Source: Auanema rhodensis
Taxonomy: Eukaryota > Animalia > Nematoda
NCBI GenBank assembly: GCA_964057225.1
Contig: OZ059899.1
Coordinates: 12,338,001 to 12,402,000, forward strand
Length of the DNA: 64,000 bases
Reading direction: 5' to 3'
The position numbers and the translations under genes are program-made. How positions within the stretch are numbered: position 1 is the stretch's first letter; the number at the start of each line of letters is the position of its first letter. The notes under the pieces are model-generated. The model searched no databases. It saw only the letters and a list, made by a program, of their open reading frames with translations, and had not been told where the DNA came from. Shown piece by piece: positions 2,368 through 55,732 of the stretch.

Positions 2368-2373
2368 GAATCC

Positions 2374-17300: not shown

Positions 17301-20246
17301 TTTCAACAGACAACAGGTGAGATGGCCGAGCGGTCTAAGGCGCTGGTTTAAGGCACCAGTCTCTTCGGAGGCGTGGGTTCGAATCCCACTCTCATCAGAA
17401 TCCTCTTATTATATAAAACATTTTGATATATACGAAGGGTCGACAAGAACCATTTGAGCATCAAGAGTTTCAACAGACAACAGGTGAGATGGCCGAGCGG
17501 TCTAAGGCGCTGGTTTAAGGCACCAGTCTCTTCGGAGGCGTGGGTTCGAATCCCACTCTCATCAGAATCCTTTTATTGTATAAAACATTTTGATATATAC
17601 GAAGGGTCGATCGGGATCATTTGATTATCAAGAGTTTCAACAGACAACAGGTGAGATGGCCGAGCGGTCTAAGGCGCTGGTTTAAGGCACCAGTCTCTTC
17701 GGAGGCGTGGGTTCGAATCCCACTCTCATCAGAATCCTTTTATTGTATAAAACATTTTGTTATATACGAAGTGTCGACAAGAACCATTTGAGCATCAAGA
17801 GTTTCAACAGACAACAGGTGAGATGGCCGAGCGGTCTAAGGCGCTGGTTTAAGGCACCAGTCTCTTCGGAGGCGTGGGTTCGAATCCCACTCTCATCAGA
17901 ATCCTTTTATTGTATAAAACATTTTGATATATACGAAGGGTCGATCGGGATCATTTGATTATCAAGAGTTTCAACAGACAACAGGTGAGATGGCCGAGCG
18001 GTCTAAGGCGCTGGTTTAAGGCACCAGTCTCTTCGGAGGCGTGGGTTCGAATCCCACTCTCATCAGAATCCTTTTATTATATAAAACATTTTGTTATATA
18101 CGAAGGGTCGATCGGGATCATTTGATTATCAAGAGTTTCAACAGACAACAGGTGAGATGGCCGAGCGGTCTAAGGCGCTGGTTTAAGGCACCAGTCTCTT
18201 CGGAGGCGTGGGTTCGAATCCCACTCTCATCAGAATCCTTTTATTATATAAAACATTTTGTTATATACGAAGTGTCGACAAGAACCATTTGAGCATCAAG
18301 AGTTTCAACAGACAACAGGTGAGATGGCCGAGCGGTCTAAGGCGCTGGTTTAAGGCACCAGTCTCTTCGGAGGCGTGGGTTCGAATCCCACTCTCATCAG
18401 AATCCTTTTATTGTATAAAACATTTTGATATATACGAAGGGTCGACAAGAACCATTTGAACATCAAGAGTTTCAACTGACAACAGGTGAGATGGCCGAGC
18501 GGTCTAAGGCGCTGGTTTAAGGCACCAGTCTCTTCGGAGGCGTGGGTTCGAATCCCACTCTCATCAGAATCCTTTTATTATATAAAACATTTTGATATCT
18601 ACGAAGGGTCGACAAGAACCATTTGAGCATCAAGAGTTTCAACAGACAACAGGTGAGATGGCCGAGCGGTCTAAGGCGCTGGTTTAAGGCACCAGTCTCT
18701 TCGGAGGCGTGGGTTCGAATCCCACTCTCATCAGAATCCTTTTATTGTATAAAACATTTTGATATATACGAAGGGTCGATCGGGATCATTTGATTATCAA
18801 GAGTTTCAACAGACAACAGGTGAGATGGCCGAGCGGTCTAAGGCGCTGGTTTAAGGCACCAGTCTCTTCGGAGGCGTGGGTTCGAATCCCACTCTCATCA
18901 GAATCCTTTTATTGTATAAAACATTTTGATATATACGAAGGGTCGACAAGAACCATTTGAGCATCAAGAGTTTCAACAGACAACAGGTGAGATGGCCGAG
19001 CGGTCTAAGGCGCTGGTTTAAGGCACCAGTCTCTTCGGAGGCGTGGGTTCGAATCCCACTCTCATCAGAATCCTTTTATTGTATAAAACATTTTGATATA
19101 TACGAAGGGTCGATCGGGATCATTTGAGCATCAAGAGTTTCAACAGACAACAGGTGAGATGGCCGAGCGGTCTAAGGCGCTGGTTTAAGGCACCAGTCTC
19201 TTCGGAGGCGTGGGTTCGAATCCCACTCTCATCAGAATCCTTTTATTATATAAAATATTTTGTTATCTACGAAGGGTCGACAAGAACCATTTGAGCATCA
19301 AGAGTTTCAACAGACAACAGGTGAGATGGCCGAGCGGTCTAAGGCGCTGGTTTAAGGCACCAGTCTCTTCGGAGGCGTGGGTTTGAATCCCACTCTCATC
19401 AGAATCCTTTTATTATATAAAATATTTTGATATCTACGAAGGGTCGACAAGAACCATTTGAGCATCAAGAGTTTCAACAGACAACAGGTGAGATGGCCGA
19501 GCGGTCTAAGGCGCTGGTTTAAGGCACCAGTCTCTTCGGAGGCGTGGGTTCGAATCCCACTCTCATCAGAATCCTTTTATTGTATAAAACATTTTGATAT
19601 ATACGAAGGGTCGATCGGGATCATTTGATTATCAAGAGTTTCAACAGACAACAGGTGAGATGGCCGAGCGGTCTAAGGCGCTGGTTTAAGGCACCAGTCT
19701 CTTCGGAGGCGTGGGTTCGAATCCCACTCTCATCAGAATCCTTTTATTATATAAAACATTTTGATATCTACGAAGGGTCGACAAGAACCATTTGAGCATC
19801 AAGAGTTTCAACAGACAACAGGTGAGATGGCCGAGCGGTCTAAGGCGCTGGTTTAAGGCACCAGTCTCTTCGGAGGCGTGGGTTCGAATCCCACTCTCAT
19901 CAGAATCCTTTTATTGTATAAAACATTTTGATATATACGAAGGGTCGATCGGGATCATTTGATTATCAAGAGTTTCAACAGATAACAGGTGAGATGGCCG
20001 AGCGGTCTAAGGCGCTGGTTTAAGGCACCAGTCTCTTCGGAGGCGTGGGTTCGAATCCCACTCTCATCAGAATCCTTTTATTGTATAAAACATTTTGATA
20101 TATACGAAGGGTCGATCGGGATCATTTGATTATCAAGAGTTTCAACAGACAACAGGTGAGATGGCCGAGCGGTCTAAGGCGCTGGTTTAAGGCACCAGTC
20201 TCTTCGGAGGCGTGGGTTCGAATCCCACTCTCATCAGAATCTTTTT

Positions 20247-20591
20247 CGTTCCGTTATGCTCCTGCGTCGATAATATAAACCATTGTAGTTTATACTATGA
20301 CGCGCATAGTATTCCTTGGTGTAGCGGTAAGGAATAAAGAGCATAAGGTCAATCATAAGATAAAAGAGAGAAAGATTTATTGGCATGAAACTACAACAAT
20401 AATATACAAAGATAAAGATACAATACAATAAGATAAATATAAGTATAAAGACTAAACTACAAGCCGTCCATGAGCTTGCTAAGAGGCGAACTCCCGACCA
20501 AGGGAACGAGGGAAGGCGGAGCCATTCCTCGGTCCTCTGGTCGTCTGGCTCTAACCCTTCAGCTACATATATGGGGAGTCCGAATGGAACG
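20247..20591 (-). repeat. E1 3' LTR
   Basis: Direct repeat of 31766-32110 with termini CGTTCC...GGAACG; the PPT precedes it on the minus strand. Confidence 0.95.
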
Positions 20592-20602
20592 TGCCCTTTT
20601 TC
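20592..20602 (-). promoter_or_regulatory. E1 polypurine tract
   Basis: GAAAAAGGGCA abuts the 3' LTR; E2 has GAAAAAATGGCA at the same position. Confidence 0.8.
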
Positions 20603-21287
20603 AAAGATTTTTCGCGTCCGCGCGATATAAAGTGTTTTTAGTGTATATGTAGCTGAGTTTTAGAGTCTAGGAGTTTACAAATAAAATTAAAAGTTTTAAA
20701 ATCTACATGTAGAAAGATATATAAATAGTTTTAATAGGATTCTTTATGGTATTAAGATAGAATTTGAATACAATAATAGGTTTTACGTTATTTTGTAACG
20801 GAGGATTAGAAAATAAATTTAGTCACTGTAGTACTGTAATAAAAAAAAATTTTCTTTGTTTCATGAATGTGTGATTTATGTGAGACAATAAGGAATTATT
20901 AAACATTTCGCGTACATGGTTACTCGTATCCTAATGATGATGGGGATAATTTTAGTTAATAATTTACTCGTCTCCATATGTCTCTCTAAATGAATCCTTG
21001 AGTACTAATGGAGGCTACCACTCAGATGGGGTGTGGCTTAGGCGCCTGCCAATGTTCGTCTCTTCTTGGAGATACATGTGGAGCTCAGTTTAGCGCAAAA
21101 TATTATCTCTATCGGTCGTATAGGATTACGGTAGCCATTTATTTCTATTATATTCTCACTTATTCCTTAGTTTTGGTTGTTTACTCACTTAATCTCTCAT
21201 CAAAAAGTTTTCTAATTCACCGTTACTTTCATTTTACAATTTACAGAAAAGAAAAGAATGTATATAAAGTTATTTCTTGTCGTCTTT

Positions 21288-22646
21288 TCATGCTTTCTCT
21301 TTTTGATTTTTCATCCGTGGTAACCATAATTCATCTCCATCTTCGTTCTCTGATTCCGGTTCGCTATCGGTGTTATCTTGCTCGTTTCTTTTGATCACTC
21401 TTAGTATCTCTATATCGCTGTCCTCTTCTTCTTCTTCGTAATTGTTGCGTGTATTAGAGCGGGTATTGTGAGTGATATTTTGAGTCGCGTTTGAGAAGAG
21501 TTTGAGATTATCCTTGTGGATATCTTGTATCTTTCCTGATGAATTCCTTATCTGCACCTTGGATCCTTGTACGTTAATAACTTCGTAAGGTCCGTCATAG
21601 CTTTTCCTCAGTTTCTGACCAATTTTATGTGACTTTATTGTTGTCATCACCATGTCGCCGGGTTGAATGTTCCTTTCGTGCGTCCTTTGTGTTCTATCCT
21701 TCTTCTTTCTGGCGTTTTCTTGGTTTTGGGCGATACGTTCACGTATTATTTGGTCTATTTTCATCATTTGAGGTCTTCTCGTGAGTAATTCTTCCGAAAT
21801 CTCTTTGATTTTTGTTATGGTTCCCGGTAATTCGGCATCAATTTTCATTCTGCATTCTTTTCCAAAAAGTGCTACGTATGGGGCTATGCCTGTTGTAGCA
21901 TGCTGAATGTTATTGATAGCGAATGTAATTTTCGGCAATACGCTATCCCAGTCGCTTAGATCTTCCTTCAAGTAGTGTGTTAATCCTTCCTCAAGAGTTC
22001 TGTGTAGTCTTTCGACTTGTCCGTTTGAGTTCTTTTGGTGAGGAAGGGTGGGTTCATGTTGAATTCCCAGTTTTGTACACATTTCTTCAAACTTTTGAGA
22101 TACAAAATTAGATCCTCTATCGGTGATCAGTCGATGAGGCGGTCCGTATATGTATACAAAGTTGCGTAGAAATCTGTCAATTGTTATTTCTGTCGTAATT
22201 TGCGGTACTGCTATCGTTGTTGACCATTTAGTAAAAGCATCCTGGATGGTAATAACGTAAGTACAATTCCTTTTTGACGGGGGAAAAGGTCCCATTACAT
22301 CCATATGAACTCGTTCAAAAGGCTTGGTCGGTATTTCAAATTGACCTATTGGCTGTACTGTCATAGAATGTGGGTCCTTCTTCCTTTGTGCGCATTTAAT
22401 GCAGTTTTTGATATATATCATGATATCATTTTGCATGTTGGTCCAATAAAATCTCCGTAGGATAGCTTCTTTAGTTTTATTAATTCCTTGATGCGCTGCG
22501 ATTGTAGGATCTTCGTGAAATAATTCTATTATCTCGTCCTTGATTGGATGATCTTGTGGCACAACGATTGCAGGATGTGGTTTCTTGTCTGTTGGTTTTG
22601 TGTAGAGTAATCCATTTATAACGCAATATCTATCGTTAGAGACCAT
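21288..22646 (-). CDS. E1 integrase, disconnected from pol by an out-of-frame deletion (the frame is open back to about 22765)
   Basis: HHCC motif (FHED..AHQG...CIKC), catalytic core (VHMDVMGP, ITDRGSNF, NGQVERLH) and GPY/F motif YDGPY. No chromodomain. Confidence 0.92.
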   Translation of the reverse strand: MVSNDRYCVINGLLYTKPTDKKPHPAIVVPQDHPIKDEIIELFHEDPTIAAHQGINKTKEAILRRFYWTNMQNDIMIYIKNCIKCAQRKKDPHSMTVQPIGQFEIPTKPFERVHMDVMGPFPPSKRNCTYVITIQDAFTKWSTTIAVPQITTEITIDRFLRNFVYIYGPPHRLITDRGSNFVSQKFEEMCTKLGIQHEPTLPHQKNSNGQVERLHRTLEEGLTHYLKEDLSDWDSVLPKITFAINNIQHATTGIAPYVALFGKECRMKIDAELPGTITKIKEISEELLTRRPQMMKIDQIIRERIAQNQENARKKKDRTQRTHERNIQPGDMVMTTIKSHKIGQKLRKSYDGPYEVINVQGSKVQIRNSSGKIQDIHKDNLKLFSNATQNITHNTRSNTRNNYEEEEEDSDIEILRVIKRNEQDNTDSEPESENEDGDELWLPRMKNQKEKA

Positions 22647-22741
22647 TTTCTTTTGCGTTCTATATTCGATGTCCGCGATTGTTTTCTTTATCCATAGAGT
22701 ATTTTGTTGAATTTCTTTTATAGCAGGTGTATCAATAGTAT

Positions 22742-25700
22742 TTATTCTGATCGATTCTGCGTTCCCAGTATGTATGTGCGAAATTGATTCAGTGCGTATA
22801 CTAACCCTAAGGCTTCAATTTCGATTGGTGCGTAATTGCGTTCCGCTTTTACCAGTTTTCTGCTGGCAAATGCGATAGGATGAAGATGCTTCAATGGTTG
22901 CGTGGGATCTTCTGGTTGCAATAATACTGCGCCCACTGCTATGTTGCTGCCGTCACTCTCGATAATGAATAATCGATCAGATTTTGGTGGACTTAATACG
23001 GGCGCTTGGGTGAGACTTCTTTTTAATCGATCTACAGCTTCCTGATGTTGCTTTTCCCAAGCGAATTCGGTATCCGTCTTTGTCAAATCGTACAATGGGC
23101 TTGCGATACTTGCAAAATCTTTAATGAATTTGCGAAAAAATCCAACCATTCCTAAGAATGCGCGAACGCCTGTTGCGTTCTTTGGTGCCGGATATTCTTG
23201 TATCGCAGCCACTTTTTGAGGGTCCGGTTTTATTCCTTCTCTTCCAATAATTAATCCGAGAAATTTTACTTCTGGTTGAGCAAAGGCACATTTCTTTAAC
23301 TTAATTTTCATTCCCAAACTTTCGACCGCGTATAATAATTCGTCGATATCTTCAAGGTGTTGCTTTCTTGTATCAGAGATTATCAGCAGATCGTCCAAGT
23401 ATACAAATAATTTGCAAGAGCATTTACTTTGCAAATATCTTACTGCTGTTTGAAAAGTATGAGGGGCTCCACAGAGACCCATAGGCATTCTTTTATATTG
23501 ATACGTGCCTGATGTTGTTGTAAATGCTGTTAAAGGACGATCAGATTTACGTAGTGATATTTGAAAAAATCCTGATACTAAATCAAAGTTTGAGAAGAAT
23601 TGAGCTCCAGCTGCCATGTCAACTATATCCGATATGCTTGGTATAACGTATGTTTGTTTACGCGTGACACTATTGAGGGCTCGAAAATCTGTCACGAACC
23701 TATATGTCTCATCCTTCTTCTTCACTAGCACAGCAGGGCTATTGAAGAGGGATGTAGAGGGTTCGATTATGCCTTGCTCTAGCATTTCTTTTACTTGCTT
23801 TTCCACTTCTTCCTGTTTACCAAGTGGAATCCTCGTTATTCTTGACCTTGGCATGTCCATATCCGATCTTAGTGGAATTGTATGCTCAATGGGTCCTTTA
23901 AATAGACCTATCTTCCTATCTTCATTAAGAAAGGCCTCACGATGGTTCTTAACTATGTTTGTGAGCTCGTGCTTGTCTTCATTATTCAAATCTGCTTTAT
24001 CCAGATTAAGGTCATTCATAAAATTTCTTGGAAAGTGGGGTAATTTATTCTCCCAATCTGCTTCTGGTGGAATATATGGTTGCATAGGGTCTTCTTGTAT
24101 TGTTTGCCAGCTTGGTACTTCTCCTATTGTTGCCTGCCCTATGACTGAATTAGCTTCCATAGCTAATGTTTTGTCCGTATTGTTACGGAAAACTACATAT
24201 ACTCCACTTGTCTCACGGAAAGCTGTTGGATAACTTGAAGCTAATGCATTTCCGTTGTCCCCTAAGATTACCACTTCGTTTGATTTGAGTGGTCTATCAG
24301 CTTTGATTGGAATAGTGGACTCTTCATCGGGTTGTATGATTCTTTTCTTCAAATTGATGATATTTACTGTTATTGCCGTTTGTTTAATGGCGTCCTGTTC
24401 AATTAAAGGGAGTGCGTAATTTCCGATCTCTAGCATCTTTTTCGATGGTTTTAAACTGACATCAATGTTTTCACTGTCGAGCGTGCTCATAAAGTCCATC
24501 CCAATAAGAGCAGGGGCTGGGCAATCACAGTCATTTGAGACCAAAAAGGTATGTTCTATCTCATAGCCAGCAATTTCGATGTTTAAATTTATTTTTCCGT
24601 ATAATGTAAACGTTGTTTTGTTTGCTGCCATTGCCACTAATCGTCGCTTTTTGACGTGTTGAGCCATGTTCAGGTATTTTAATGTCGATAGCCTGACATA
24701 TGAGACTGACGAGCCTGAATCCCATAAAGCTAATATCAGCTTATCTTCTACTGATATATAGATAAGTGGTAGCTTTGTTTCTTTTGATTTAATAAAAGCA
24801 ATAAATGGTATTGCTAGTGGAATGAATGTTACGAGCGCCGGGTAATACTGCTTCATTATATTTTCTGGCATTGGTTGGTCTGGGCGGCTAACGAGTTCTA
24901 ATGTTTCCTCGTAGCCTGGGGGCTCGTTGTCTGCTCTTTGAATATGCATGACTGGTAGTGGCATTGCTTTGAAAAAGTAAAATTTTCCGGCAAAGATGGT
25001 AATTATGATTGCTGCAATGATTAGAACAGTAGATCCTATTAATATTAAGGTTCTTTCAATTGTCCCCATTAAGAATTGTTTTATGCTATTCCCGGCTGTA
25101 GTTGTGAACTCAGTTGCTTTCGAAATATAATCGCTGCCCTTTTTCAAAAGAATAAAGGCTGACGTTATCTTTGGGTCGTTGTGAATCGTATTTAGTACGT
25201 GATTTTGTCGTATTGAAGCTAAACTAGCTCCATACGCTATTGCGGTAGTCATTGAATAGACTCTTGATGAAAGATTAGTATAAAGATGAGCACCTGTAAA
25301 TTTTAAAGGCGTAACTTTATGTTGGTGAGCTCCATCAAAAAGTGTGATGGGATTGACTTCCACAGACCCATTAATGTTCATCCATTCCCCGTTTTTCTCA
25401 TAAATATCAGTTGGTACGTGTTCGCAGTCGATTTCTTTCCCGTACGAGAGTAAATCTCTTGATCCCGGTGCTGCGAAATATAATTTGTTGTCTTCGGTTG
25501 TTACTGGTGTCTCTAAGTAACATGTTTCATTGATTTTATGAGAGTGGTGAACGGTTTTAGGCTCTATTGGAAGGCATATGTGAACATGAACTATTTCGCT
25601 GCCCACGAAACGCGCTGCTATGTCTTCTCTGCCAAGGATTGTTCTCATTGCTATGGTTGGCTCTATTTGGAGAATTGAACGCCACAATTCGAGATATCTA

Positions 25701-28700
25701 TTTTGTATCTCGCATATGGATTCGTAAGATTCCATAAAATGCTTTTGCAATTCTTCCTGTATAAGAGTGGTTGCATATTGTAGATGATCTTGCGCTATTC
25801 TCTGAGATATATTCTGTTTATATTGTATCTCGTTGTTTACTTTGGAGCCTATATAATGTGCTTGCGCTTGTACTGCTTTCGTTTCAATCTCCAAAGGTGG
25901 TGATGACGTTCTCTGCTTTCTTTGCGATCTTAAAGACATATCTGTGACCGTTGCAAACGTAGTAATAGGCTGTTCTTTGTGAACACCATATATTAATGTA
26001 ACCGTTGTTGGCGCGCGCGTGGATGTTATGGCTTGAGTTGTATCGATCTCTGGCGTTGTTTGAGGGTCCTGGATTAGCTTTGTTACTTCCGTTGTTGTCG
26101 TTATATATTCAGTTTTGTCCGTCAGGCGTCTGGTTGAGTAGGGAGGTGTTCTTTTATCCTCTAGTAGCGGTAGAAAGGTTTGAATGAGAAGATTTCGTGT
26201 ATATTTGTTAGGACTTTTTGTTTGTTGATGGGGCCCAACAGGTATACCAAAATTATTCTCCATATCTCGATATAATTTCTCTATATCTGGCAGGATAATA
26301 GTTGGTACAGGCAGATGTCGAAATCTTTCATCGTCTGCTCTGGCCGCTGTTCGATTGGGTTTTATTGTACGTAGTTTGAGAACTTGGTGATATAGGTCAA
26401 TTGTTTCTTTAATAATCAGTTGTTCCTTTTCGTTATTAGTTGATAATACGGGCCTGATTGGCGGCATGTTTACAAATGCTTTCAAAACTTCTTGTTTTGA
26501 TGGCACCGACATGTTATTTTGAGCGAAAATGGTCGGTGTAAATGCCAACTCGAGCGCTATACTTTCGGTTCGCTCTCGATAACTTCCTTCTTTTGTGAGT
26601 ATTTTTTCGTCAAATTCTTCTGCTGTTAATCTATCGCCTATCTGCTCTAAAAGTTGCAAGGAGGTGAGGTATTTAACGGCTCCTCTTGTGGTAGCTGCCA
26701 GTTCTTTTTGGGCGAAGAATTGAAGCATTGCTTCTTCCGGGTCGTAGAATTCATATATTTTTAAGAATCTTTCTATTGATCTATCCGAAGTAGTGCTTCG
26801 TAGGAAGAATTTGAACTGCTCGGGATGTGCTGAGATCCACTTAACGATAGAATATGTTGGATCTATTGTCCGTCTGGCTCGAATTATAGGAATTATTTGT
26901 GATATCCCAGGGTTACTCATTACTGGACGTAAAAATGGGTATGGGCATATGTTCAATGTTAAAGTTTCGTAGTCTTCTTGTTCTTTTATCCAGCTTTCGT
27001 CCAATTGCAGTGCGCATTGCGCTATAGCCCTTTTTTGACGCTTAGCTGGCAACTTTTTATATTCTCTTTCAATTAAGTTGTGTATATTACTGTCATTTGG
27101 ATATTTTGGAAAAAGTATATAATTGCCCGTGGTTGATTGAAATATAGGTTGCGGAAAACATGATGTAATCTGTTTTGGAATTTGTTTATTGTCGATAACA
27201 AGGGCTGACTGCGTATTGGGAATCAGTATTATGCTGTCTCCAATGATGGCATCATATTCGCTCATGTCTATATAGTTGCATCTCTGTTCGTATGATTGGA
27301 TTTCCCAGATGATCATTGAAGTATTGGATGCGCATTGGCCATGATGTGCAAGACAGCCTTCCGTATTGAGTAATAGATTTGTCAATATGGTGTCGTCTGG
27401 CATCCTGGTCATAACGCCTCTTTCCAAAACCAGTCGTTCTTTTTCTTCGCATTGTTCGTAATTGAATGAGCGCGCTGGAGAGAATGTAGGTTCGGTTGTC
27501 GCGTATGTCAAGCTATCCAATTTAATCAGGTCTTCTGATTTCCATTTACGGTCGCGGACAGCCAGTCTACATTCGTTTTCTGTTGTTGGCTCAATTCGAA
27601 CAATGGAGGAGTTATGATCTCTTAAAAATAGCAAATCCCTGATGCATATTTTATGTATTTCTTTTGAACATCGCCATGAATCCCATTCGTGAGCCGTCTG
27701 GTTTCTTGTATACAGATGTATGTTTGTGCGGAGGACATGTTTGGTAGGTGGTATTGTGCATTTCCTCAGGGGTGGGGGTATAAGGAGGGCTCCACCTGTA
27801 GCTTTAGTGCACATCTGATAAGCATCAGTTATAGTGATTAGTGATAAGATCACTGATAAAGCTACTGCTAGTGTTAAGGGGGATATCAAGGTCAAATTAT
27901 TGACTCTTGAGCCTCTTCCTCTACCTCTATTATTGTTGTTTCCCCTGAAGGGATTATTACCGCGTTGACGGTTATCACTCTCCTGATTACGTGATAAGTT
28001 GTTATTTCTTTGATACCAATTTGGATTTGAGAAATTTCTACCGCGATTACCAAGATTGCGGTTTCTTGCGAAAGAATTTTGCAGATTTTGTGGTTTCTGA
28101 TTATTTGATGAATTTTGATAACTTTGATAATTTTGATAATTTTGGTAGTTTCTATTGTTAAATGATTGATAGCCTCTACCGATTCCTCGCCTTCCGGTGT
28201 CGCGCCTGGGAGGGAATGTTCTATCGATTGCGTTAACCAGTAGCGCCTGAGGGTCGGATACTTGGTTAGCAATTGATTCCTCCCATCTGGCATTATCAAT
28301 TGCCTCGGCAAACGTTTTTGGTTTAGCTCTGATTACCCCCGGGCGTATTGTGTTTTTGAGACCGCGTAGAAAGGTGGATCTAAGGATATGGTCCTTGTGT
28401 GGGTCTGTATGGGAGAAAGCGTTTAAGCTTAGGCTTCGTAAAGTTTGTGCGAATCCATCCACTGATAGCTCGCCTTGGGTGGAATTCTGTAGCGTTATCA
28501 GCGCCGGATCTTGATTATACTCTGGGCATAGCCTAGAGGTAAGTTCTTCGATGAGAGTATTCCACGAGCCAGATGTCTTGATAGTATCGCTAAGCTGTGT
28601 ATAAGCTTCTTCAGCTCGTTCGTTTTTGAGAAGTAATGGTAAGATTGTTAATCTTTCGGGCATAACTAAGCCTAAGGCGTTTGCAAAGGTGTTAAACTTG

Positions 28701-30004: not shown

Positions 30005-30227
30005 TCTGACTCCGCCTATCTACCGTAAGCTTATTATAGTTAATGATGTTTATCTCTTCTCAAAAACTATTTTTATCCGCTCTTGCACTTTCCTCTAAAT
30101 TTGTTTTCTTACTGCTCTAGAATCTTCAAAAAAAAACTTTATTCATGTCGTCCCCTTTGTACTTTTGCGGCCTTTGGACATTTATTTTAAGGTTAGAAAC
30201 AAAAGAAAAGAAAAGAAAGAAAAAAAA

Positions 30228-30772
30228 ATGGATTTCCAACGTTATAATCCCACTGGCATGACTTATGTCCTGTGGAAATTATACGAATCCATCGTTGAAT
30301 ACGATGGAGAAGGAGTTTTGGCTTATAGGCCACATCCTGATATAATTTTGATGGTTTGTGTATCTCCATTTTATGTTTGATTATTTGATTACTTTAGTTT
30401 ATCGAAGATCTCCAAATGTATTATTTGGGGCAGGGCCATATAAACTTTGCCACCTTCTTAGATGTAGCTCCCGAAGTGGAGCTTGTTGGTCGAAGGTGCT
30501 TAGTTGATCTATGCGCTCATGTATATAATGATAGGGCCGGTTTATTAACCGCACGTCCTTGGGCCTGGTACCAGGAAAAGAGTCATTTTTATTATTATTT
30601 ATTATATAGATTATTGTTTAAAATCTATATTGTTTATGATGACTCATTATTTGGTTTGGAACTTAGGGTTTCGCGAGGTTTAGAATATAGTGAAGATTTA
30701 AATGCGAGCGAAACTCCTATGTTTTTTGCCTCTGAGTTTCGAACTCGGTTGCAAATCAAATATGGGTATTGA
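30228..30772 (+). CDS. Spliced antisense accessory gene in the E1 leader, about 166 aa, unknown function
   Basis: AAAATG start at 30228. A 44-nt GTTTGT...CTTTAG intron (30354-30397) joins two ORF-track ORFs in frame (..PDIILM|FIEDLQMYYLG..). TGA at 30770-30772 is followed by AATAAA at 30776-30781. Confidence 0.7.
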
Positions 30773-31752
30773 CTGAATAAAGTTTGTACTCTGTGTTTTT
30801 ATTTTTGTGCACTTTGCTCTGTTTTCGTCAAGAAAACGGACTTATGTTTTCAATCTTTTCCTCATTCCTTTTCCCTTAAATAGCATGTTTTGCTCAAAAT
30901 GTTTTCGACATTGTGCATGCTAATGAGGTTTGAGGAGAGTTATTGAAAAGGCTGTCCTTTTTCTTGATCAAAATAAGCAAAAGTGCGTTTTCCTAAGCTA
31001 ATTTCTTTTTAAAAATGAGAAAAATACGTCTATTTTTAAACATTTCCCATTTACTTAGGATTACTGTAGGAGATAAGGGGTATCTTATGAGTTGAAACAA
31101 CGAAATGATTTGAGGAAGGTGACATAATCTACGGGGATAAAATCCGTAGCAGTTATGCTTCCGCCAACTTGACCTGACTGTCAAATAAGAGCTGAGAAGT
31201 CTTATTGCAGATTTACCAGGCTTTTTCGGACTAGTGTGGTCTCTTTTTATATTCAATTTATGTAACCGTTTTTGGTTTCCCGCAAAATAATATGTAAAAT
31301 GATCTTTTACGTCTGAATATAATAATTTTTCAAAATTCTAGTCCTGACCACAAATATACAAACTATAAACAATTGCGCGCGTCTTATAAATTTTTGTTCC
31401 AATTATCAAACTTCTCTATGCCCAAAAAAAAAATGTGAACAATTATAATTTCTCGTTTGGCGAAATTGTCCTCTATTTCAATCCAAACGTCCTCAAAATG
31501 GCATGAGAAGCGGTACAAGATACGATAAAGAAAAGGGTGGACATTCAGACGGTTTTTAAATTGAGGACGGCGGGCAAAAATTTTATTGGTCCTATCTCGC
31601 ATTTAAGCGAGATCCCTTGTATCTGTACCTTAAAACAAATTGGCGCCTTCATTTTGTTGTTTCAAGTGGAGGAATTTATAATTTAGAATGCAAAAATGGA
31701 CTTTTACAATAAAAAAAATTTTTTTTTTTTTTTTTCCAAAAGATGAGTTCGA

Positions 31753-31765
31753 GGTGGAACCTCCA
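31753..31765 (-). promoter_or_regulatory. E1 primer-binding site, tRNA-Gln
   Basis: TGGAGGTTCCACC directly follows the 5' LTR and is complementary to GGTGGAACCT-CCA, the conserved 3' end of metazoan tRNA-Gln. Confidence 0.88.
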
Positions 31766-32110
31766 CGTTCCGTTATGCTCCTGCGTCGATAATATAAACC
31801 ATTGTAGTTTATACTATGACGCGCATAGTATTCCTTGGTGTAGCGGTAAGGAATAAAGAGCATAAGGTCAATCATAAGATAAAAGAGAGAAAGATTTATT
31901 GGCATGAAACTACAACAATAATATACAAAGATAAAGATACAATACAATAAGATAAATATAAGTATAAAGACTAAACTACAAGCCGTCCATGAGCTTGCTA
32001 AGAGGCGAACTCCCGACCAAGGGAACGAGGGAAGGCGGAGCCATTCCTCGGTCCTCTGGTCGTCTGGCTCTAACCCTTCAGCTACATATATGGGGAGTCC
32101 GAATGGAACG
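31766..32110 (-). repeat. E1 5' LTR
   Basis: 345-bp copy of 20247-20591, followed on the minus strand by the PBS. Confidence 0.95.
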
Positions 32111-37150: not shown

Positions 37151-37163
37151 TGGAGGTTCCACC
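37151..37163 (+). promoter_or_regulatory. E2 primer-binding site, tRNA-Gln
   Basis: TGGAGGTTCCACC abuts the LTR and is identical to the E1 PBS. Confidence 0.88.
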
Positions 37164-46100: not shown

Positions 46101-49100
46101 TCGAATCCCACTCTCATCAGAATCCTTTTATTGTATAAAACATTTTGATATATACGAAGGGTCGACAAGAACCATTTGAGCTTTAAGAGTTTCAACAGAC
46201 AACAGGTGAGATGGCCGAGCGGTCTAAGGCGCTGGTTTAAGGCACCAGTCTCTTCGGAGGCGTGGGTTCGAATCCCACTCTCATCAGAATCCTTTTATTA
46301 TATAAAACATTTTGATATATACGAAGGGTCGACAAGAACCATTTAGGCATCAAGAGTTTCAACAGACAACAGGTGAGATGGCCGAGCGGTCTAAGGCGCT
46401 GGTTTAAGGCACCAGTCTCTTCGGAGGCGTGGGTTCGAATCCCACTCTCATCAGAATCCTTTTATTGTAAAAAACATTTTGATATATACGAAGGGTCGAT
46501 CGGGATCATTTGATTATCAAGAGTTTCAACTGACAACAGGTGAGATGGCCGAGCGGTCTAAGGCGCTGGTTTAAGGCACCAGTCTCTTCGGAGGCGTGGG
46601 TTCGAATCCCACTCTCATCAGAATCCTTTTATTGCATAAAACATTTTGATATATACGAAGGGTCGACAAGAACCATTTGAGCTTCAAGAGTTTCAACAGA
46701 CAACAGGTGAGATGGCCGAGCGGTCTAAGGCGCTGGTTTAAGGCACCAGTCTCTTCGGAGGCGTGGGTTCGAATCCCACTCTCATCAGAGTCCTTTTATT
46801 ATATAAAACATTTTGATATATACGAAGGGTCGACAAGAACCATTTGAGCTTCAAGAGTTTCAACAGACAACAGGTGAGATGGCCGAGCGGTCTAAGGCGC
46901 TGGTTTAAGGCACCAGTCTCTTCGGAGGCGTGGGTTCGAATCCCACTCTCATCAGAATCCTTTTATTGTATAAAACATTTTGATATATACGAAGGGTCGA
47001 CAAGAACCATTTGAGCTTCAAGAGTTTCAACAGACAACAGGTGAGATGGCCGAGTGGTCTAAGGCGCTGGTTTAAGGCACCAGTCTCTTCGGAGGCGTGG
47101 GTTCGAATCCCACTCTCATCAGAATCCTTTTATTATATAAAACATTTTGATATATACGAAGGGTCGACAAGAACCATTTGAGCATCAAGAGTTTCAACAG
47201 ACAACAGGTGAGATGGCCGAGCGGTCTAAGGCGCTGGTTTAAGGCACCAGTCTCTTCGGAGGCGTGGGTTCGAATCCCACTCTCATCAGAATCCTTTTAT
47301 TGTATAAAACATTTTGATATATACGAAGGGTCGATCGGGATCATTTGATTATCAAGAGTTTCAACAGACAACAGGTGAGATGGCCGAGCGGTCTAAGGCG
47401 CTGGTTTAAGGCACCAGTCTCTTCGGAGGCGTGGGTTCGAATATCACTCTCATCAGAATCCTTTTATTGTATAAAACCTTTTGATATATACGAAGGGTCG
47501 ATCGGGATCATTTGATTATCAAGAGTTTCAACAGACAACAGGTGAGATGGCCGAGCGGTCTAAGGCGCTGGTTTAAGGCACCAGTCTCTTCGGAGGCGTG
47601 GGTTCGAATCCCACTCTCATCAGAATCCTTTTATTGTATAAAACATTTTGATATATACGAAGGGTCGATCGGGATCATTTGATTATCAAGAGTTTCAACA
47701 GACAACAGGTGAGATGGCCGAGCGGTCTAAGGCGCTGGTTTAAGGCACCAGTCTCTTCGGAGGCGTGGGTTCGAATCCCACTCTCATCAGAATCCTTTTA
47801 TTGTATAAAACATTTTGATATATACGAAGGGTCGACAAGAACCATTTGAGCTTCAAGAGTTTCAACAGACAACAGGTGAGATGGCCGAGTGGTCTAAGGC
47901 GCTGGTTTAAGGCACCAGTCGCTTCGGAGGCGTGGGTTCGAATCCCACTCTCATCAGAATCCTTTTATTATATAAAACATTTTGATATATACGAAGGGTC
48001 GACAAGAACCATTTGAGCATCAAGAGTTTCAACAGACAACAGGTGAGATGGCCGAGCGGTCTAAGGCGCTGGTTTAAGGCACCAGTCTCTTCGGAGGCGT
48101 GGGTTCGAATCCCACTCTCATCAGAATCCTTTTATTGTATAAAACATTTTGATATATACGAAGGGTCGATCGGGATCATTTGATTATCAAGAGTTTCAAC
48201 AGACAACAGGTGAGATGGCCGAGCGGTCTAAGGCGCTGGTTTAAGGCACCAGTCTCTTCGGAGGCGTGGGTTCGAATATCACTCTCATCAGAATCCTTTT
48301 ATTATATAAAACATTTTGATATATACGAAGGGTCGACAAGAACCATTTGAGCATCAAGAGTTTCAACTGACAACAGGTGAGATGGCCGAGCGGTCTAAGG
48401 CGCTGGTTTAAGGCACCAGTCTCTTCGGAGGCGTGGGTTCGAATCCCACTCTCATCAGAATCCTTTTATTGTATAAAACATTTTGATATATACGAAGGGT
48501 CGACAAGAACCATTTGAGCTTTAAGAGTTTCAACAGACAACAGGTGAGATGGCCGAGCGGTCTAAGGCGCTGGTTTAAGGCACCAGTCTCTTCGGAGGCG
48601 TGGGTTCGAATCCCACTCTCATCAGAATCCTTTTATTGTATAAAACATTTTGATATATACGAAGGGTCGATCGGGATCATTTGATTGTCAAGAGTTTCAA
48701 CAGACAACAGGTGAGATGGCCGAGCGGTCTAAGGCGCTGGTTTAAGGCACCAGTCTCTTCGGAGGCGTGGGTTCGAATCCCACTCTCATCAGAATCCTTT
48801 TATTGTATAAAACATTTTGATATATACGAAGAGTCGACAAGAACCATTTGAGCTTCAAGAGTTTCAACAGACAACAGGTGAGATGGCCGAGCGGTCTAAG
48901 GCGCTGGTTTAAGGCACCAGTCTCTTCGGAGGCGTGGGTTCGAATCCCACTCTCATCAGAATCCTTTTATTATATAAAACATTTTGATATATACGAAGGG
49001 TCGACAAGAACCATTTGAGCATCAAGAGTTTCAACAGACAACAGGTGAGATGGCCGAGCGGTCTTAGGCGCTGGTTTAAGGCACCAGTCTCTTCGGAGGC

Positions 49101-50814
49101 GTGGGTTCGAATCCCACTCTCATCAGAATCCTTTTATTATATAAAACATTTTGATATATACGAAGGATCGACAAGAACCATTTGAGCATCAAGAGTTTCA
49201 ACAGACAACAGGTGAGATGGCCGAGCGGTCTTAGGCGCTGGTTTAAGGCACCAGTCTCTTCGGAGGCGTGGGTTCGAATCCCACTCTCATCAGAATCCTT
49301 TTATTATATAAAACATTTTGATATATACGAAGGGTCGATCGGGATCATTTGTTTATCAAGAGTTTCAACAGACAACAGGTGAAATGGCCGAGCGGTCTTA
49401 GGCGCTGGTTTAAGGCACCAGTCTCTTCGGAGGCGTGGGTTCGAATCCCACTCTCATCAGAATCCTTTTATTATATAAAACATTTTGATATATACGAAGG
49501 GTCGACAAGAACCATTTGAGCATCAAGAGTTTCAACAGACAACAGGTGAGATGGCCGAGCGGTCTAAGGCGCTGGTTTAAGGCACCAGTCTCTTCGGAGG
49601 CGTGGGTTCGAATCCCACTCTCATCAGAATCCTTTTATTGTATAAAACATTTTGATATATACGAAGGGTCGATCGGGATCATTTGATTATCAAGAGTTTC
49701 AACTGACAACAGGTGAGATGGCCGAGCGGTCTAAGGCGCTGGTTTAAGGCACCAGTCTCTTCGGAGGCGTGGGTTCGAATCCCACTCTCATCAGAATCCT
49801 TTTATTATATAAAACATTTTGATATATACGAAGTGTCGACAAGAACCATTTGAACATCAAGAGTTTCAACTGACAACAGGTGAGATGGCCGAGCGGTCTA
49901 AGGCGCTGGTTTAAGGCACCAGTCTCTTCGGAGGCGTTGGTTCGAATCCCACTCTCATCAGAATCCTTTTATTATATAAAACATTTTGACATATACGAAG
50001 GGTCGACAAGAACCATTTGAACATCAAGAGTTTCAACAGACAACAGGTGAGATGGCCGAGCGGTCTAAGGCGCTGGTTTAAGGCACCAGTCTCTTCGGAG
50101 GCGTGGGTTCGAATCCCACTCTCATCAGAATCCTTTTATTGTATAAAACATTTTGATATATACGAAGGGTCGACAAGAACCATTTGAGCTTTAAGAGTTT
50201 CAACAGACAACAGGTGAGATGGCCGAGCGGTCTAAGGCGCTGGTTTAAGGCACCAGTCTCTTCGGAGGCGTGGGTTCGAATATCACTCTCATCAGAATCC
50301 TTTTATTATATAAAACATTTTGATATATACGAAGGGTCGACAAGAACCATTTGAGCATCAAGAGTTTCAACTGACAACAGGTGAGATGGCCGAGCGGTCT
50401 AAGGCGCTGGTTTAAGGCACCAGTCTCTTCGGAGGCGTGGGTTCGAATCCCACTCTCATCAGAATCCTTTTATTGTATAAAACATTTTGATATATACGAA
50501 GGGTCGACAAGAACCATTTGAGCTTTAAGAGTTTCAACAGACAACAGGTGAGATGGCCGAGCGGTCTAAGGCGCTGGTTTAAGGCACCAGTCTCTTCGGA
50601 GGCGTGGGTTCGAATCCCACTCTCATCAGAGTCCTTTTATTATATAAAACATTTTGATATCTACGAAGGGTCGACAAGAACCATTTGAGCATCAAGAGTT
50701 TCAACAGACAACAGGTGAGATGGCCGAGCGGTCTAAGGCGCTGGTTTAAGGCACCAGTCTCTTCGGAGGCGTGGGTTCGAATCCCACTCTCATCAGAATC
50801 CTTTTATTATATAA
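40138..50814 (+). tRNA. tRNA-Leu(AAG) array block 3, 64 copies
   Basis: Gene starts run from 40194 to 50714; 10520 = 63 x 167 - 1, with a 1-bp spacer deletion near 46035. Confidence 0.95.
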
Positions 50815-51653
50815 CGTTCCGTTATGCTCCTGCGTCGATAATATAAACCATTGTAGTTTATACCATGACGCGAATAGTATTCCTTGGTGTAGCGGTAAGA
50901 ATACAGAGCATAAGGTCAATCATAAGATAAAAGAGAGAAAGATTTATTGACATGAAACTACAACAATAATATACAAAGATAAAGATACATTACAATAAGA
51001 TAAATAAAAGTATAGAGACTAAACTACAAGCCGTCCATGAGCTTGCTAAGAGGCGAACTCCCGACCAAGGGAACGAGGGAAGGCGGAGCCATTCCTCGGT
51101 CCTCTGGTCGTCTGGCTCTAACCCTTCAGCTACATACAGTCCTGTGCGAAATAGTTGGGACACTCACTAGAAACCCTTGTACCTTCTCAGACAAACTACA
51201 AAAATTCAGAAAAAATATATTTTGGGTGTTAAAAAACGATAATGAATTCAGAAAAAATCTTCAAAATTTTAAAAATCATGTTGAAAAGTATTTTCTGAAG
51301 TCTTGAATCTATGCCATAGGAAAAACTTGGTTATTGATCGAGCTCTGTGCTCAGAATGATTTAAAGATATTTTTAATAAATTAACTTGTTTCTAATCTCA
51401 AATTTTGTTATATTAAGAAGGATTATTCAAAATAGTCAAAAAACACTATTTTTCCTTATAAATTTAGAAATCTCATTGAAATCAGTTTTCATTATATTAA
51501 CATATATTTTGACTGAATATAAACTAAACGCAAAATGTTTGAAATTAAAAAAAAAATTTTTTTTGTAGTTTGAAGGGGAATTCTGGGGCCTCTAACATAG
51601 GGGTGTCCCAACTATTTCGCACAGGACTGTATATGGGGAGTCCGAATAGACCG
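50815..51653 (-). mobile_element. Solo LTR of the E1 family (about 10 differences from the E1 LTR), interrupted by a MITE
   Basis: CGTTCCGTTATG...TCCGAATAGACCG with TSD ATAA on both sides; no PBS or PPT adjacent. Confidence 0.92.
51137..51629. mobile_element. Tc1/mariner-type MITE, 493 bp
   Basis: Perfect 27-bp TIR CAGTCCTGTGCGAAATAGTTGGGACAC, TA duplication relative to the empty E1 LTR site, and an AT-rich non-coding interior. Confidence 0.92.
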
Positions 51654-54161
51654 ATAAAATTTTTTGATATATACGAAGGGTCGACAAGAACCATTTGAGC
51701 ATCAAGAGTTTCAACTGACAACAGGTGAGATGGCCGAGCGGTCTAAGGCGCTGGTTTAAGGCACCAGTCTCTTCGGAGGCGTGGGTTCGAATCCCACTCT
51801 CATCAGATTCCTTTTATTATATAAAACATTTTGATATATACGAAGTGTCGACAAGAACCATTTGATCATCAAGAGTTTCAACTGACAACAGGTGAGATGG
51901 CCGAGCGGTCTAAGGCGCTGGTTTAAGGCACCAGTCTCTTCGGAGGCGTGGGTTCGAATCCCACTCTCATCAGAATCCTTTTATTGTATAAAACATTTTG
52001 ATATATACGAAGTGTCGACAAGAACCATTTGAGCATCAAGAGTTTCAACTGACAACAGGTGAGATGGCCGAGCGGTCTAAGGCGCTGGTTTAAGGCACCA
52101 GTCTCTTCGGAGGCGTGGGTTCGAATCCCACTCTCATCAGAATCCTTTTATTATATAAAACATTTTGATATATACGAAGGGTCGATCGGGATCATTTGAG
52201 CATCAAGAGTTTCAACAGACAACAGGTGAGATGGCCGAGCGGTCTAAGGCGCTGGTTTAAGGCACCAGTCTCTTCGGAGGCGTGGGTTCGAATCCCACTC
52301 TCATCAGAATCCTTTTATTATATAAAATATTTTGTTATCTACGAAGGGTCGACAAGAACCATTTGAGCATCAAGAGTTTCAACAGACAACAGGTGAGATG
52401 GCCGAGCGGTCTAAGGCGCTGGTTTAAGGCACCAGTCTCTTCGGAGGCGTGGGTTCGAATCCCACTCTCATCAGAATCCTTTTATTATATAAAACATTTT
52501 GATATATACGAAGTGTCGACAAGAACCATTTGAGCATCAAGAGTTTCAACTGACAACAGGTGAGATGGCCGAGCGGTCTAAGGCGCTGATTTAAGGCACC
52601 AGTCTCTTCGGAGGCGTGGGTTCGAATCCCACTCTCATCAGAATCCTTTTATTGTATAAAACATTTTGATATATACGAAGTGTCGACAAGAACCATTTGA
52701 GCATCAAGAGTTTCAACTGACAACAGGTGAGATGGCCGAGCGGTCTAAGGCGCTGGTTTAAGGCACCAGTCTCTTCGGAGGCGTGGGTTCGAATCCCACT
52801 CTCATCAGAATCCTTTTATTATATAAAACATTTTGATATATACGAAGGGTCGATCGGGATCATTTGAGCATCAAGAGTTTCAACAGACAACAGGTGAGAT
52901 GGCCGAGCGGTCTAAGGCGCTGGTTTAAGGCACCAGTCTCTTCGGAGGCGTGGGTTCGAATCCCACTCTCATCAGAATCCTTTTATTATATAAAATATTT
53001 TGTTATCTACGAAGGGTCGACAAGAACCATTTGAGCATCAAGAGTTTCAACAGACAACAGGTGAGATGGCCGAGCGGTCTAAGGCGCTGGTTTAAGGCAC
53101 CAGTCTCTTCGGAGGCGTGGGTTCGAATCCCACTCTCATCAGAATCCTTTTATTGTATAAAACATTTTGATATATACGAAGGGTCGATCGGGATCATTTG
53201 ATTATCAAGAGTTTCAACAGACACAGGTGAGATGGCCGAGCGGTCTAAGGCGCTGGTTTAAGGCACCAGTCTCTTCGGAGGCGTGGGTTCGAATCCCACT
53301 CTCATCAGAATCCTTTTATTATATAAAACATTTTGATATATACGAAGGGTCGATCGGGATCATTTGATTATCAAGAGTTTCAACAGACAACAGGTGAGAT
53401 GGCCGAGCGGTCTTAGACGCTGGTTTAAGGCACCAGTCTCTTCGGAGGCGTGGGTTCGAATCCCACTCTCATCAGAATCCTTTTATTATATAAAACATTT
53501 TGATATATACGAAGGGTCGACAAGAACCATTTGAGCATCAAGAGTTTCAACAGACAACAGGTGAGATGGCCGAGCGGTCTAAGGCGCTGGTTTAAGGCAC
53601 CAGTCTCTTCGGAGGCGTGGGTTCGAATCCCACTCTCATCAGAATCCTTTTATTGTATAAAACATTTTGATATATACGAAGGGTCGATCGGGATCATTTG
53701 ATTATCAAGAGTTTCAACAGACAACAGGTGAGATGGCCGAGCGGTCTAAGGCGCTGGTTTAAGGCACCAGTCTCTTCGGAGGCGTGGGTTCGAATATCAC
53801 TCTCATCAGAATCCTTTTATTATATAAAACATTTTGATATATACGAAGGGTCGACAAGAACCATTTGAGCATCAAGAGTTTCAACTGACAACAGGTGAGA
53901 TGGCCGAGCGGTCTAAGGCGCTGGTTTAAGGCACCAGTCTCTTCGGAGGCGTGGGTTCGAATCCCACTCTCATCAGAGTCCTTTTATTATATAAAACATT
54001 TTGATATCTACGAAGGGTCGACAAGAACCATTTGAGCATCAAGAGTTTCAACAGACAACAGGTGAGATGGCCGAGCGGTCTAAGGCGCTGGTTTAAGGCA
54101 CCAGTCTCTTCGGAGGCGTGGGTTCGAATCCCACTCTCATCAGAATCCTTTTATTATATAA
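51654..54161 (+). tRNA. tRNA-Leu(AAG) array block 4, 15 copies
   Basis: Gene starts run from 51724 to 54061; 2337 = 14 x 167 - 1. Confidence 0.95.
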
Positions 54162-55000
54162 CGTTCCGTTATGCTCCTGCGTCGATAATATAAACCATTG
54201 TAGTTTATACCATGACGCGAATAGTATTCCTTGGTGTAGCGGTAAGAATACAGAGCATAAGGTCAATCATAAGATAAAAGAGAGAAAGATTTATTGACAT
54301 GAAACTACAACAATAATATACAAAGATAAAGATACATTACAATAAGATAAATAAAAGTATAGAGACTAAACTACAAGCCGTCCATGAGCTTGCTAAGAGG
54401 CGAACTCCCGACCAAGGGAACGAGGGAAGGCGGAGCCATTCCTCGGTCCTCTGGTCGTCTGGCTCTAACCCTTCAGCTACATACAGTCCTGTGCGAAATA
54501 GTTGGGACACTCACTAGAAACCCTTGTACCTTCTCAGACAAACTACAAAAATTCAGAAAAAATATATTTTGGGTGTTAAAAAACGATAATGAATTCAGAA
54601 AAAATCTTCAAAATTTTAAAAATCATGTTGAAAAGTATTTTCTGAAGTCTTGAATCTATGCCATAGGAAAAACTTGGTTATTGATCGAGCTCTGTGCTCA
54701 GAATGATTTAAAGATATTTTTAATAAATTAACTTGTTTCTAATCTCAAATTTTGTTATATTAAGAAGGATTATTCAAAATAGTCAAAAAACACTATTTTT
54801 CCTTATAAATTTAGAAATCTCATTGAAATCAGTTTTCATTATATTAACATATATTTTGACTGAATATAAACTAAACGCAAAATGTTTGAAATTAAAAAAA
54901 AAATTTTTTTTGTAGTTTGAAGGGGAATTCTGGGGCCTCTAACATAGGGGTGTCCCAACTATTTCGCACAGGACTGTATATGGGGAGTCCGAATAGACCG
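54162..55000 (-). mobile_element. Duplicate of the solo LTR plus MITE
   Basis: Same sequence, same ATAA TSD and same private flanking variants as 50815-51653, offset by 3347 bp. Confidence 0.92.
54484..54976. mobile_element. Tc1/mariner-type MITE, second copy
   Basis: Same 27-bp TIR and TA TSD. Confidence 0.92.
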
Positions 55001-55329
55001 ATAAAATTTTTTGATATATACGAAGGGTCGACAAGAACCATTTGAGCATCAAGAGTTTCAACTGACAACAGGTGAGATGGCCGAGCGGTCTAAGGCGCTG
55101 GTTTAAGGCACCAGTCTCTTCGGAGGCGTGGGTTCGAATCCCACTCTCATCAGAATCCTTTTATTGTATAAAACATTTTGATATATACGAAGTGTCGACA
55201 AGAACCATTTGAGCATCAAGAGTTTCAACTGACAACAGGTGAGATGGCCGAGCGGTCTAAGGCGCTGGTTTAAGGCACCAGTCTCTTCGGAGGCGTGGGT
55301 TCGAATCCCACTCTCATCAGAATCCTTTT
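55001..55329 (+). tRNA. tRNA-Leu(AAG) array block 5, 2 copies
   Basis: Genes at 55071-55152 and 55238-55319. Confidence 0.95.
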
Positions 55330-55579
55330 TGTGGCGATATACCACAAATGTATAGTATGGTTGGAAGTAAAACACAAATTGAATATGTAGAAAAGGGTTT
55401 ATTGATGAATTAACAAGACAAGCACGGAATAAAATCACTGACTGCGAACGTTGAAAATGTAAGACTGATCTCTTCTCGTGGGCGGTCGTCAGCCTGAAAC
55501 AAAGAGTTAGTCATGCCACATGTATAACACAACATGTGGTATGGATAAAAATTACTTAGGAAGTTAGAAGAAAGAAGAA

Positions 55580-55627
<48 letters not shown>

Positions 55628-55702: not shown

Positions 55703-55732
55703 CTCCCGGCAATGCGGGAATGAGAAGAAGGC

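Follow-up and report, generated by a model that had tools for sequence, protein, structure and literature searches.

Most genomic copies of Pol III-targeted LTR retrotransposons (Ty1, Ty3, DGLT-A, and Skipper-2) lie within a narrow interval close to tRNA or 5S genes. For Drosophila, AT-rich target motifs were described for all LTR families studied, AWTAWNWTAWT for Pao and TATA or ATAT cores for Gypsy elements (PMC3276498). Gypsy GAG-ENV-POL elements with a gB-type env and belpaoviruses with a phlebovirus-like env are both already known in nematodes, and ENV-POL hits have been tabulated for two Auanema assemblies (PMC13524379). In Auanema rhodense, tRNA arrays were reported among the germline-restricted repeats, 39% of eliminated versus ~0.9% of retained genes overlap transposable elements, and the authors argued for weak selection on germline-restricted DNA (bioRxiv 2026.08.27.747507).

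Elements in the tRNA-Leu(AAG) Array

The window, i.e. the whole 64-kb stretch of DNA that was analyzed, contained the following features.

2161..55329, plus strand: tandem tRNA-Leu(AAG) array; 167-bp unit consisting of an 82-nt gene and an 85-nt spacer; 217 genes, the first truncated
20247..32110, minus strand: E1, Ty3/Gypsy GAG-ENV-POL element, delimited by LTRs, target-site duplication (TSD), and domains
21288..22814, minus strand: E1 integrase, encoded in a frame of its own; H2C2, rve, acidic C-terminal tail, without chromodomain
22742..30019, minus strand: E1 long ORF of 2425 codons between stops, with gag, a gB/Monjiviricetes-like env, protease, RT, and RNase H (ends early)
31753..31765, minus strand: primer-binding site (PBS) common to E1 and E2; 12-mer listed as tRNA-Gln, not Leu
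36814..40137, plus strand: E2, non-autonomous member of the E1 clade derived by deletion, recognized by LTRs, TSD, and retained E1-clade pieces
50815..51653, minus strand: solo LTR of the E1 family, 97.5% to the E1 LTR; TSD ATAA at +16..+19
54162..55000, minus strand: second solo-LTR copy, identical; array duplication, not a new insertion
55330..64000, minus strand: E3, BEL/Pao element whose env is phlebovirus G2-like; open frame of 2483 aa at 56548-63999; 5' part outside the window

Site positions in the array unit were counted from the discriminator base of the tRNA gene. The patch at +7..+35 had an AT content of 0.91, compared with 0.42 for the gene and 0.57 for +36..+85, and 80% of the AT-only 4-mers of the unit started in +7..+33. 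Because the genes varied less than the spacers (0.003 versus 0.049 differences per site), they are under some constraint or homogenization; 43 of the 217 were unlike the commonest gene sequence. A telomere-repeat run was not found in the 64-kb window.

E1 was bounded by identical LTRs of 345 bp (20247-20591 and 31766-32110) with CG...CG ends and by the TSD TTTT (20243-20246 and 32111-32114, at +7..+10), and thus combined the LTRs, tRNA PBS, and target duplication characteristic of errantiviruses. Its env was detected between PF03732 and the protease by PF24664 (E 3.6e-17) and PF00606 (E 4.2e-9, below the curated cut-off of this family). A gB-type env was therefore located between gag and a Ty3/Gypsy pol (PR-RT-RH-IN), the arrangement of nematode GAG-ENV-POL errantiviruses. 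To a protein of Auanema sp. JU1783 the element was 45-47% similar (similarity only). The E1 integrase matched no chromo family of Pfam at E<=0.01, a search that a very diverged domain could escape. Instead, its C-terminal tail was acidic, had a hydrophobic core, and terminated in W/Y-x-P; this tail was also present in E2 and in both close relatives whose sequence reaches the C terminus (P0051 and P0056) and absent in three more distant relatives (P0101, P0001, and P0061). We take this tail to resemble a SUMO-interacting motif.

E2, oriented opposite to E1, had identical LTRs of 337 bp that were ~74-77% identical to those of E1 in the aligned parts, and it retained the same PBS, a gag-leader piece, and the integrase tail. 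Its TSD was TATA at +30..+33. The solo LTR contained a TA-flanked inverted-repeat element (51137-51629); as both of its copies were identical over 948 bp, it was duplicated after a single insertion. All three verified target duplications (E1, solo LTR, and E2) were AT-only. A 3-bp TSD with A...T LTR ends fitted E1 and E2 but failed for the solo LTR, whereas 4 bp fitted all three. Since the PBS is of the Gln type, insertion guided by its homology to the array was ruled out.

The LTR of E3 started at 55330, and its 3' end joined the array after +10, the same junction as for E1. PF05380 (E 5e-40), PF03564, PF18701, and PF07245 (E 3.8e-42) were matched; Pao protease, DUF1759, DUF5641, and Phlebovirus G2 plus G2_C stood together in a polyprotein. 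Pao protease, BEL gag domains, and a G2-like env are the features of Belpaoviridae with a phlebovirus-like env. E3 contributed a single junction, at the array end, and extended past the window edge; the T-arm motif of the array did not recur after this junction, so that E3 is a putative in-array insertion.

Position and Density of the Insertions

The initial annotation had described four independent LTR insertions just downstream of tRNA genes. All reported junctions were confirmed (E1 at +7..+10, solo LTR at +16..+19, E2 at +30..+33, and E3 after +10). Neither the 82-nt gene nor +36..+85 was hit, and the T run was kept in all five upstream genes, each of which had the commonest gene sequence. 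The four sites are thus real, but their independence held only in part: E1, the solo LTR, and E2 are of one Gypsy clade, so that at most two integrase types were sampled, and E3 offers a single junction.

Superimposed on one unit, the junctions lay at +7, +16, and +30 (TSD starts) and after +10 (E3). The probability of four sites falling within a 24-bp arc of 167 was 0.0125 under uniform placement, 0.075 under a spacer-only null, 0.065 under a milder AT bias (1.5-fold odds per base), and 0.40 under an AT-only-4-mer target model. For two of four sites at one junction, P ranged from 0.035 (uniform) to 0.16-0.20 (28-35-bp window). With the AT-rich patch and a P of 0.40, the within-unit positions need no Pol III targeting. 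The AT richness of this part of the spacer, raised in the annotation as a caveat, hence explains them, as do the motif ranks given below.

The targeting claim fared better with regard to number. The insertions, all downstream of a gene, are many for an array of this size: three E1-clade insertions were present in 36 kb, where 50-300 copies, if assumed for a genome of 60-150 Mb, would be expected to place 0.01-0.18 (P 3e-7 to 9e-4, with no correction for the choice of window). A preference for sequence leaves this high density unaccounted for.

The fly-derived motifs were scanned across 203 array units. The E3 site (+6, a 5-bp duplication being assumed) ranked first of 167 for the Pao motif, with four positions nearly tied on top. 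For the gypsy-clade motif, the E2 site ranked first of 167; for the 412-clade motif, the solo LTR site ranked third of 167. The E1 TTTT site fitted neither (ranks 18 and 45 of 167); the better of the two Gypsy motifs was picked after the sites were seen. The best motif positions all lay within +6..+32 (8/8 for Gypsy, 6/6 for Pao). In motif fit, the four sites beat random sites within +1..+35 (P = 0.016) and within +6..+33 (P = 0.034). Pol III targeting calls for positions that local DNA sequence leaves unexplained; here, local sequence accounts for them (AT-only P = 0.40; motif ranks 1, 1, 3, and 18). Nor is convergence of Gypsy and BEL elements on tRNA genes, as had been proposed, called for, because the sites match AT-rich motifs described for both groups in Drosophila (PMC3276498).

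On balance, we consider it likely that the sites fall at +6..+33 because this is the sole AT-rich patch of each 167-bp repeat and the integrases prefer AT, rather than through Pol III tethering. Both integrases would likely favor AT-rich, near-palindromic target DNA, provided that nematode integrases share the motif preferences of those of Drosophila, and insertions would land in the only such patch per unit. They may accumulate in the array since it is highly redundant DNA presumably under weak selection, in which inserts would survive and even be duplicated, like the solo LTR. Open, accessible DNA downstream of the terminator may also contribute. If so, the locus is a clean case of AT-rich target preference mimicking tRNA-gene targeting in a tandem array.

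Related Sequences in Public Data

E1 was present in 11 public runs, and the contigs of four of these were inspected. The LTR flanks in these four were mixed, plus one off-register array junction among those listed; public contigs drop short junctions, the flanks covered were those of the E1 LTR towards the spacer, and 215 pieces and 23 loose ends lay beyond the listed junctions. When two mixed loose-end rows were compared with 4362 array 30-mers, the best identities were 18/30 and 17/30, with which an array flank is still compatible. At one LTR end, the final base of mixed loose-end rows was G or C in three of the three runs listing such a row. Rows finishing in G or C imply that some copies have non-AT target bases, which counts against an AT preference.

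An exact 20-nt LTR-end pattern had no match in metagenome contigs and one bacterial match in genome contigs, taken as chance. The E1 integrase had no match in viral contigs. In metagenomes it yielded 63 loci, all distant (25-35% over long matches, up to 50% over ~45-50 residues); a tRNA scan of the best two of the 63 revealed one tRNA-Tyr, ~4 kb from the match.

Alternative Explanations

With TFIIIC on the gene and TFIIIB upstream, or with a phased nucleosome across ~147 bp of each 167-bp unit, the AT-rich trailer would be the only DNA left free, with no tether required. In yeast, TFIIIC occupies the gene and TFIIIB extends over 40-50 bp upstream, and the avoided zone (the gene plus +36..+85) agrees with these footprints; the 167-bp unit is close to a short nucleosome repeat, and an open array could also account for the insertion density. 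The base-level motif fit inside the patch (P = 0.016-0.034) suggests that sequence is read, so we regard passive access as a less probable sole cause, albeit one that is compatible with the AT preference.

It appears unlikely that the E1-clade integrase, in the manner of Dictyostelium Skipper-2, inserts behind the gene by docking through its acidic tail onto Pol III, onto a termination factor, or onto SUMO-rich tRNA chromatin. The high insertion density would agree with such tethering, as would the retention of the tail in E1, E2, P0051, and P0056 but not in P0101, P0001, and P0061. Ty1 binds AC40 through a short C-terminal segment (PMC10050235), and the window of Dd-Skipper-2, 8-23 bp downstream, overlaps the sites found here (PMC5006619). 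Against it, AT preference alone already predicts the positions, and a chromodomain, present in all Skipper elements according to the same source, was not found. A weak further hint, given the gaps in the listed contigs, is that the off-register LTR-to-spacer junction among those listed was only the window's own +16 site (one run; four of 11 public runs), although the depth of LTR contigs in those runs exceeded that of low-depth variants 41-144 times (depth is not copy number). The BEL case has a single junction as its evidence. We likewise doubt the wider proposal that an envelope-bearing nematode Gypsy clade is guided to tRNA-array chromatin by the short acidic tail of its integrase, while AT preference does no more than adjust the exact site past the terminator. 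A literature search covering few subscription papers returned no title dealing with tRNA-directed LTR elements of nematodes or of any other animals. If tethering were true, this clade would be, as far as the literature was searched, the first Pol III-directed example among animal LTR retroelements, and it would be colonizing giant, possibly germline-restricted tRNA arrays. Pol III-directed LTR integration would then extend from yeasts and amoebae to animals, with a new short targeting motif.

That insertions landed anywhere and those in the gene or upstream were purged, or that four sites clustered randomly, is very improbable: small numbers (n = 4, at most two integrase types), the spacer-only null (P = 0.075), and the lower variability of the genes (0.003 versus 0.049 per site) speak for it, but one gene of 217 should be dispensable with 43 already changed, the identical LTRs of E1 and of E2 leave little time for removal, and the motif fit is not predicted. 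The safe-harbor logic of the annotation is weak for a related reason, as in an array of 217 copies, 43 already differing, loss of one gene should cost little.

Comparison with Known Systems

E1 resembles the nematode GAG-ENV-POL errantiviruses with HSV/gB-type env in having LTRs, a Ty3/Gypsy pol, and a gB-like env that separates gag from pol, and its tRNA-Gln PBS 12-mer is identical to that of C. latens and C. tropicalis elements; it differs in its split pol and CG...CG LTR ends (PMC13524379). In the passages of that paper searched, "target site" and "insertion site" each occurred 0 times. E3 shares Pao protease, DUF1759, DUF5641, and Phlebovirus G2 plus G2_C in a single polyprotein with Atlas virus and nematode Belpaoviridae with phlebovirus-like env (PMC9094657), a likeness of domain content, not of a tree, for the 3' part of E3 in the window.

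Dictyostelium Skipper-2 is likewise a Gypsy LTR element directly downstream of tRNA genes, at 8-23 bp in D. discoideum (PMC5006619, PMC5911963). Skipper-2, however, has a diverged chromodomain at the integrase C terminus and was observed at dispersed tRNA genes genome-wide, whereas E1 has an acidic tail in which no chromodomain was recognized (a very diverged one could escape Pfam), and a single array with a confounding AT patch is concerned. Zebrafish Dewa and Dada are animal elements in multicopy tRNA loci, Dewa in a tRNA-Leu spacer, but both are non-LTR or DNA elements that occupy a single fixed, sequence-specific site (PMC3706591), as opposed to three different sites here. The Drosophila Gypsy and Pao motifs stem from another host and other clades, and the E1 site misfits; as in Drosophila, where 4-bp (Gypsy) duplications occur at AT-rich near-palindromes, three of the four sites have ranks of 3 or better among 167 positions.

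Insertions in the tRNA-Leu array

ARAGORN located 217 tRNA-Leu(AAG) genes at 167-bp spacing in window 2286-55319, 174 of them identical in gene sequence. Four interruptions break up the array (E1, E2, and a solo LTR of the E1 family present in duplicate), and E3 marks its end. Features are listed with positions (+n) counted downstream from the discriminator base.

20247-32110, minus strand: E1, Ty3/Gypsy element; identical 345-bp LTRs; TTTT duplication at +7..+10
36814-40137, plus strand: E2, non-autonomous; identical 337-bp LTRs; TATA duplication at +30..+33
Two copies, identical over 948 bp: solo LTR; ATAA duplication at +16..+19
LTR start 55330, minus strand: E3, joined after +10; extends beyond the window
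21288-21450 (E1) and about 38900-39075 (E2): acidic integrase tail

Re-measurement reproduced every insertion coordinate of the initial annotation. The two solo LTR copies represent one insertion event, as deduced from their identity. Because E1 and E2 belong to one clade and E3 to BEL/Pao, the four sites represent no more than two types of integrase, and E3 contributes a single putative junction.

Array spacers comprised a few haplotypes, alternating along the array, and were about 15-fold more variable than the genes. The left edge (window 2161-2201) starts within a tRNA gene, right after unique AT-rich DNA. The unit adjoining E1 reads T rather than C at +6 (window 20242), giving a longer T run where the element joins; this variant was absent among the 202 full units listed. 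The solo LTR carries a 493-bp element (window 51137-51629; copy near 54484-54976) with terminal inverted repeats of about 30 bp and a TA duplication, by its form a Tc1/mariner-like MITE.

Identity of the elements

E1, E2, and E3 are new members of known element kinds. LTR ends of the E1/E2 clade (20247-20591, 31766-32110, and 36814-37150) are CG...CG with short inverted termini, whereas the usual ends are TG...CA. A 2425-codon frame of E1 encodes gag, a gB/Monjiviricetes-like envelope, protease, RT, and RNase H; integrase lies in a second frame. Compared with relatives, RNase H ends early at the junction with the integrase frame, so this copy is broken. The closest named relatives were Auanema sp. 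JU1783 proteins (45-47% over two long segments), and six integrase fragments from the same source matched at 50-71%; a rhabditid nematode is therefore the probable host. GAG-ENV-POL order and a gB-type envelope are shared with nematode errantiviruses already described (PMC13524379), in whose supplement the E1 PBS 12-mer is given as tRNA-Gln and is common to two Caenorhabditis elements. The E1 clade also includes E2, a deletion derivative: it shares the PBS, its LTR parts match at 74-77%, and pieces of the gag leader and of the integrase tail survive in it. E3 belongs to BEL/Pao and carries an envelope resembling phlebovirus G2, as has been described for Atlas virus (PMC9094657). Between the E3 polyprotein and the 3' end of E3 lies a minus-strand frame of 173 codons containing Cys/His clusters (window 55733-56254), for which no Pfam match was found at E<=0.01.

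Position within the repeat unit

The four sites fell within 24 bp of the 167-bp circle, and this clustering exceeded chance for uniform positions (P = 0.0125). P rose to 0.075 under a spacer-only null, to 0.40 if targets were AT-only 4-mers, and to 0.065, 0.24, and 0.58 with softer AT bias of 1.5-, 2-, and 3-fold odds per base. AT content was 91% in +7..+35, 42% in the gene, and 57% in the remaining spacer; 80% of the AT-only 4-mers of the unit lay in +7..+35, and 3/3 verified target duplications were AT-only.

AT-rich target motifs are reported for all LTR families studied in Drosophila, with TATA or ATAT cores for Gypsy and AWTAWNWTAWT with a 5-bp duplication for Pao (PMC3276498). Motif scores were averaged over 203 units and ranked among the 167 positions. 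The E3 site ranked first for the Pao motif (three near ties; 5-bp duplication assumed), the E2 site first for a gypsy-clade motif, the solo LTR site third for the 412-clade motif, and the E1 site 18 and 45 for Gypsy motifs; all top positions lay within +6..+32. Summed fit beat random sites confined to +1..+35 (P = 0.016) or +6..+33 (P = 0.034), and separate values were 0.05-0.09 for Gypsy sites and 0.11-0.14 for the BEL site, with motifs taken from flies and the choice between two Gypsy motifs made after the sites were known. These caveats granted, the local sequence suffices to position the insertions and accounts for the agreement of Gypsy and BEL elements in position.

Of the initial proposal of tRNA-gene targeting, the observed clustering downstream of tRNA genes was confirmed; the within-unit positions are best, and somewhat probably, explained by AT-rich target preference: integrases would choose AT-rich targets and would thereby be led to the patch at +7..+35. 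Passive accessibility of the DNA is an unlikely explanation of these positions.

Other E1 copies and insertion density

E1 was present in 11 public runs from three studies; contigs of four of these were compared with one LTR plus the spacer-side flank. In three runs the main LTR contigs exceeded low-depth variant contigs 41- to 144-fold in depth, which hints at a large family, although depth is not copy number. These data are weak, since short junction contigs may escape them and 215 pieces and 23 loose ends lie beyond the listing. Among the junctions listed, an LTR end met another spacer position in a single run, at +16, a site already present in the window. Loose ends at the opposite LTR end, drawn from 4, 2, and 2 contigs of three runs, disagreed with one another (agreement 0.49-0.63), so flanks of LTR copies vary; the rows listed had G or C as last base, and AT preference is thus not absolute. 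In several runs, public contigs for the LTR at 31766-32110 also showed additional E1-clade LTR subfamilies, diverged by about 10%. Searches of other sequence collections yielded nothing informative on E1-clade copies.

Three E1-clade insertions occurred in 36 kb, against 0.01-0.18 expected under uniformity with assumed copy numbers and genome sizes, uncorrected for the choice of window. Weak selection could account for this excess; the alternatives are open chromatin and a tether. For Auanema rhodense, 19,554 tRNA genes, repeat units from 167 nt, germline-restricted repeats including tRNA arrays, and strong enrichment of TE-derived genes in eliminated DNA are reported, and weak selection in that DNA is argued for (bioRxiv 2026.08.27.747507); the window may be DNA of this kind.

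Integrase tail and possible tethering

True tethering to the Pol III machinery is a still less likely explanation of the within-unit positions than accessibility. In its favor, the E1 integrase ends in an acidic tail that contains a hydrophobic core and closes with W/Y-x-P. E2, although non-autonomous, shares this tail, as do 2/2 close Auanema relatives whose sequence extends to the C-terminus; three distant relatives lack it. By resemblance, the core is a candidate SUMO-interacting motif. A precedent is Ty1, whose integrase can be held to Pol III by a tail segment of 16 residues (PMC10050235). Against it, a profile search found no chromodomain in the E1 integrase, unlike in Skipper-2, which is located 8-23 bp downstream of tRNA genes (PMC5006619, PMC5911963). 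Selection or chance as the source of the positions is very improbable.

Literature searches by title found no tRNA-locus-targeting LTR element in animals, and tethering would therefore be of note, provided a genome-wide map bore it out. Animal elements described as targeting tRNA loci occur among non-LTR and DNA transposons, with Dewa and Dada as examples (PMC3706591).
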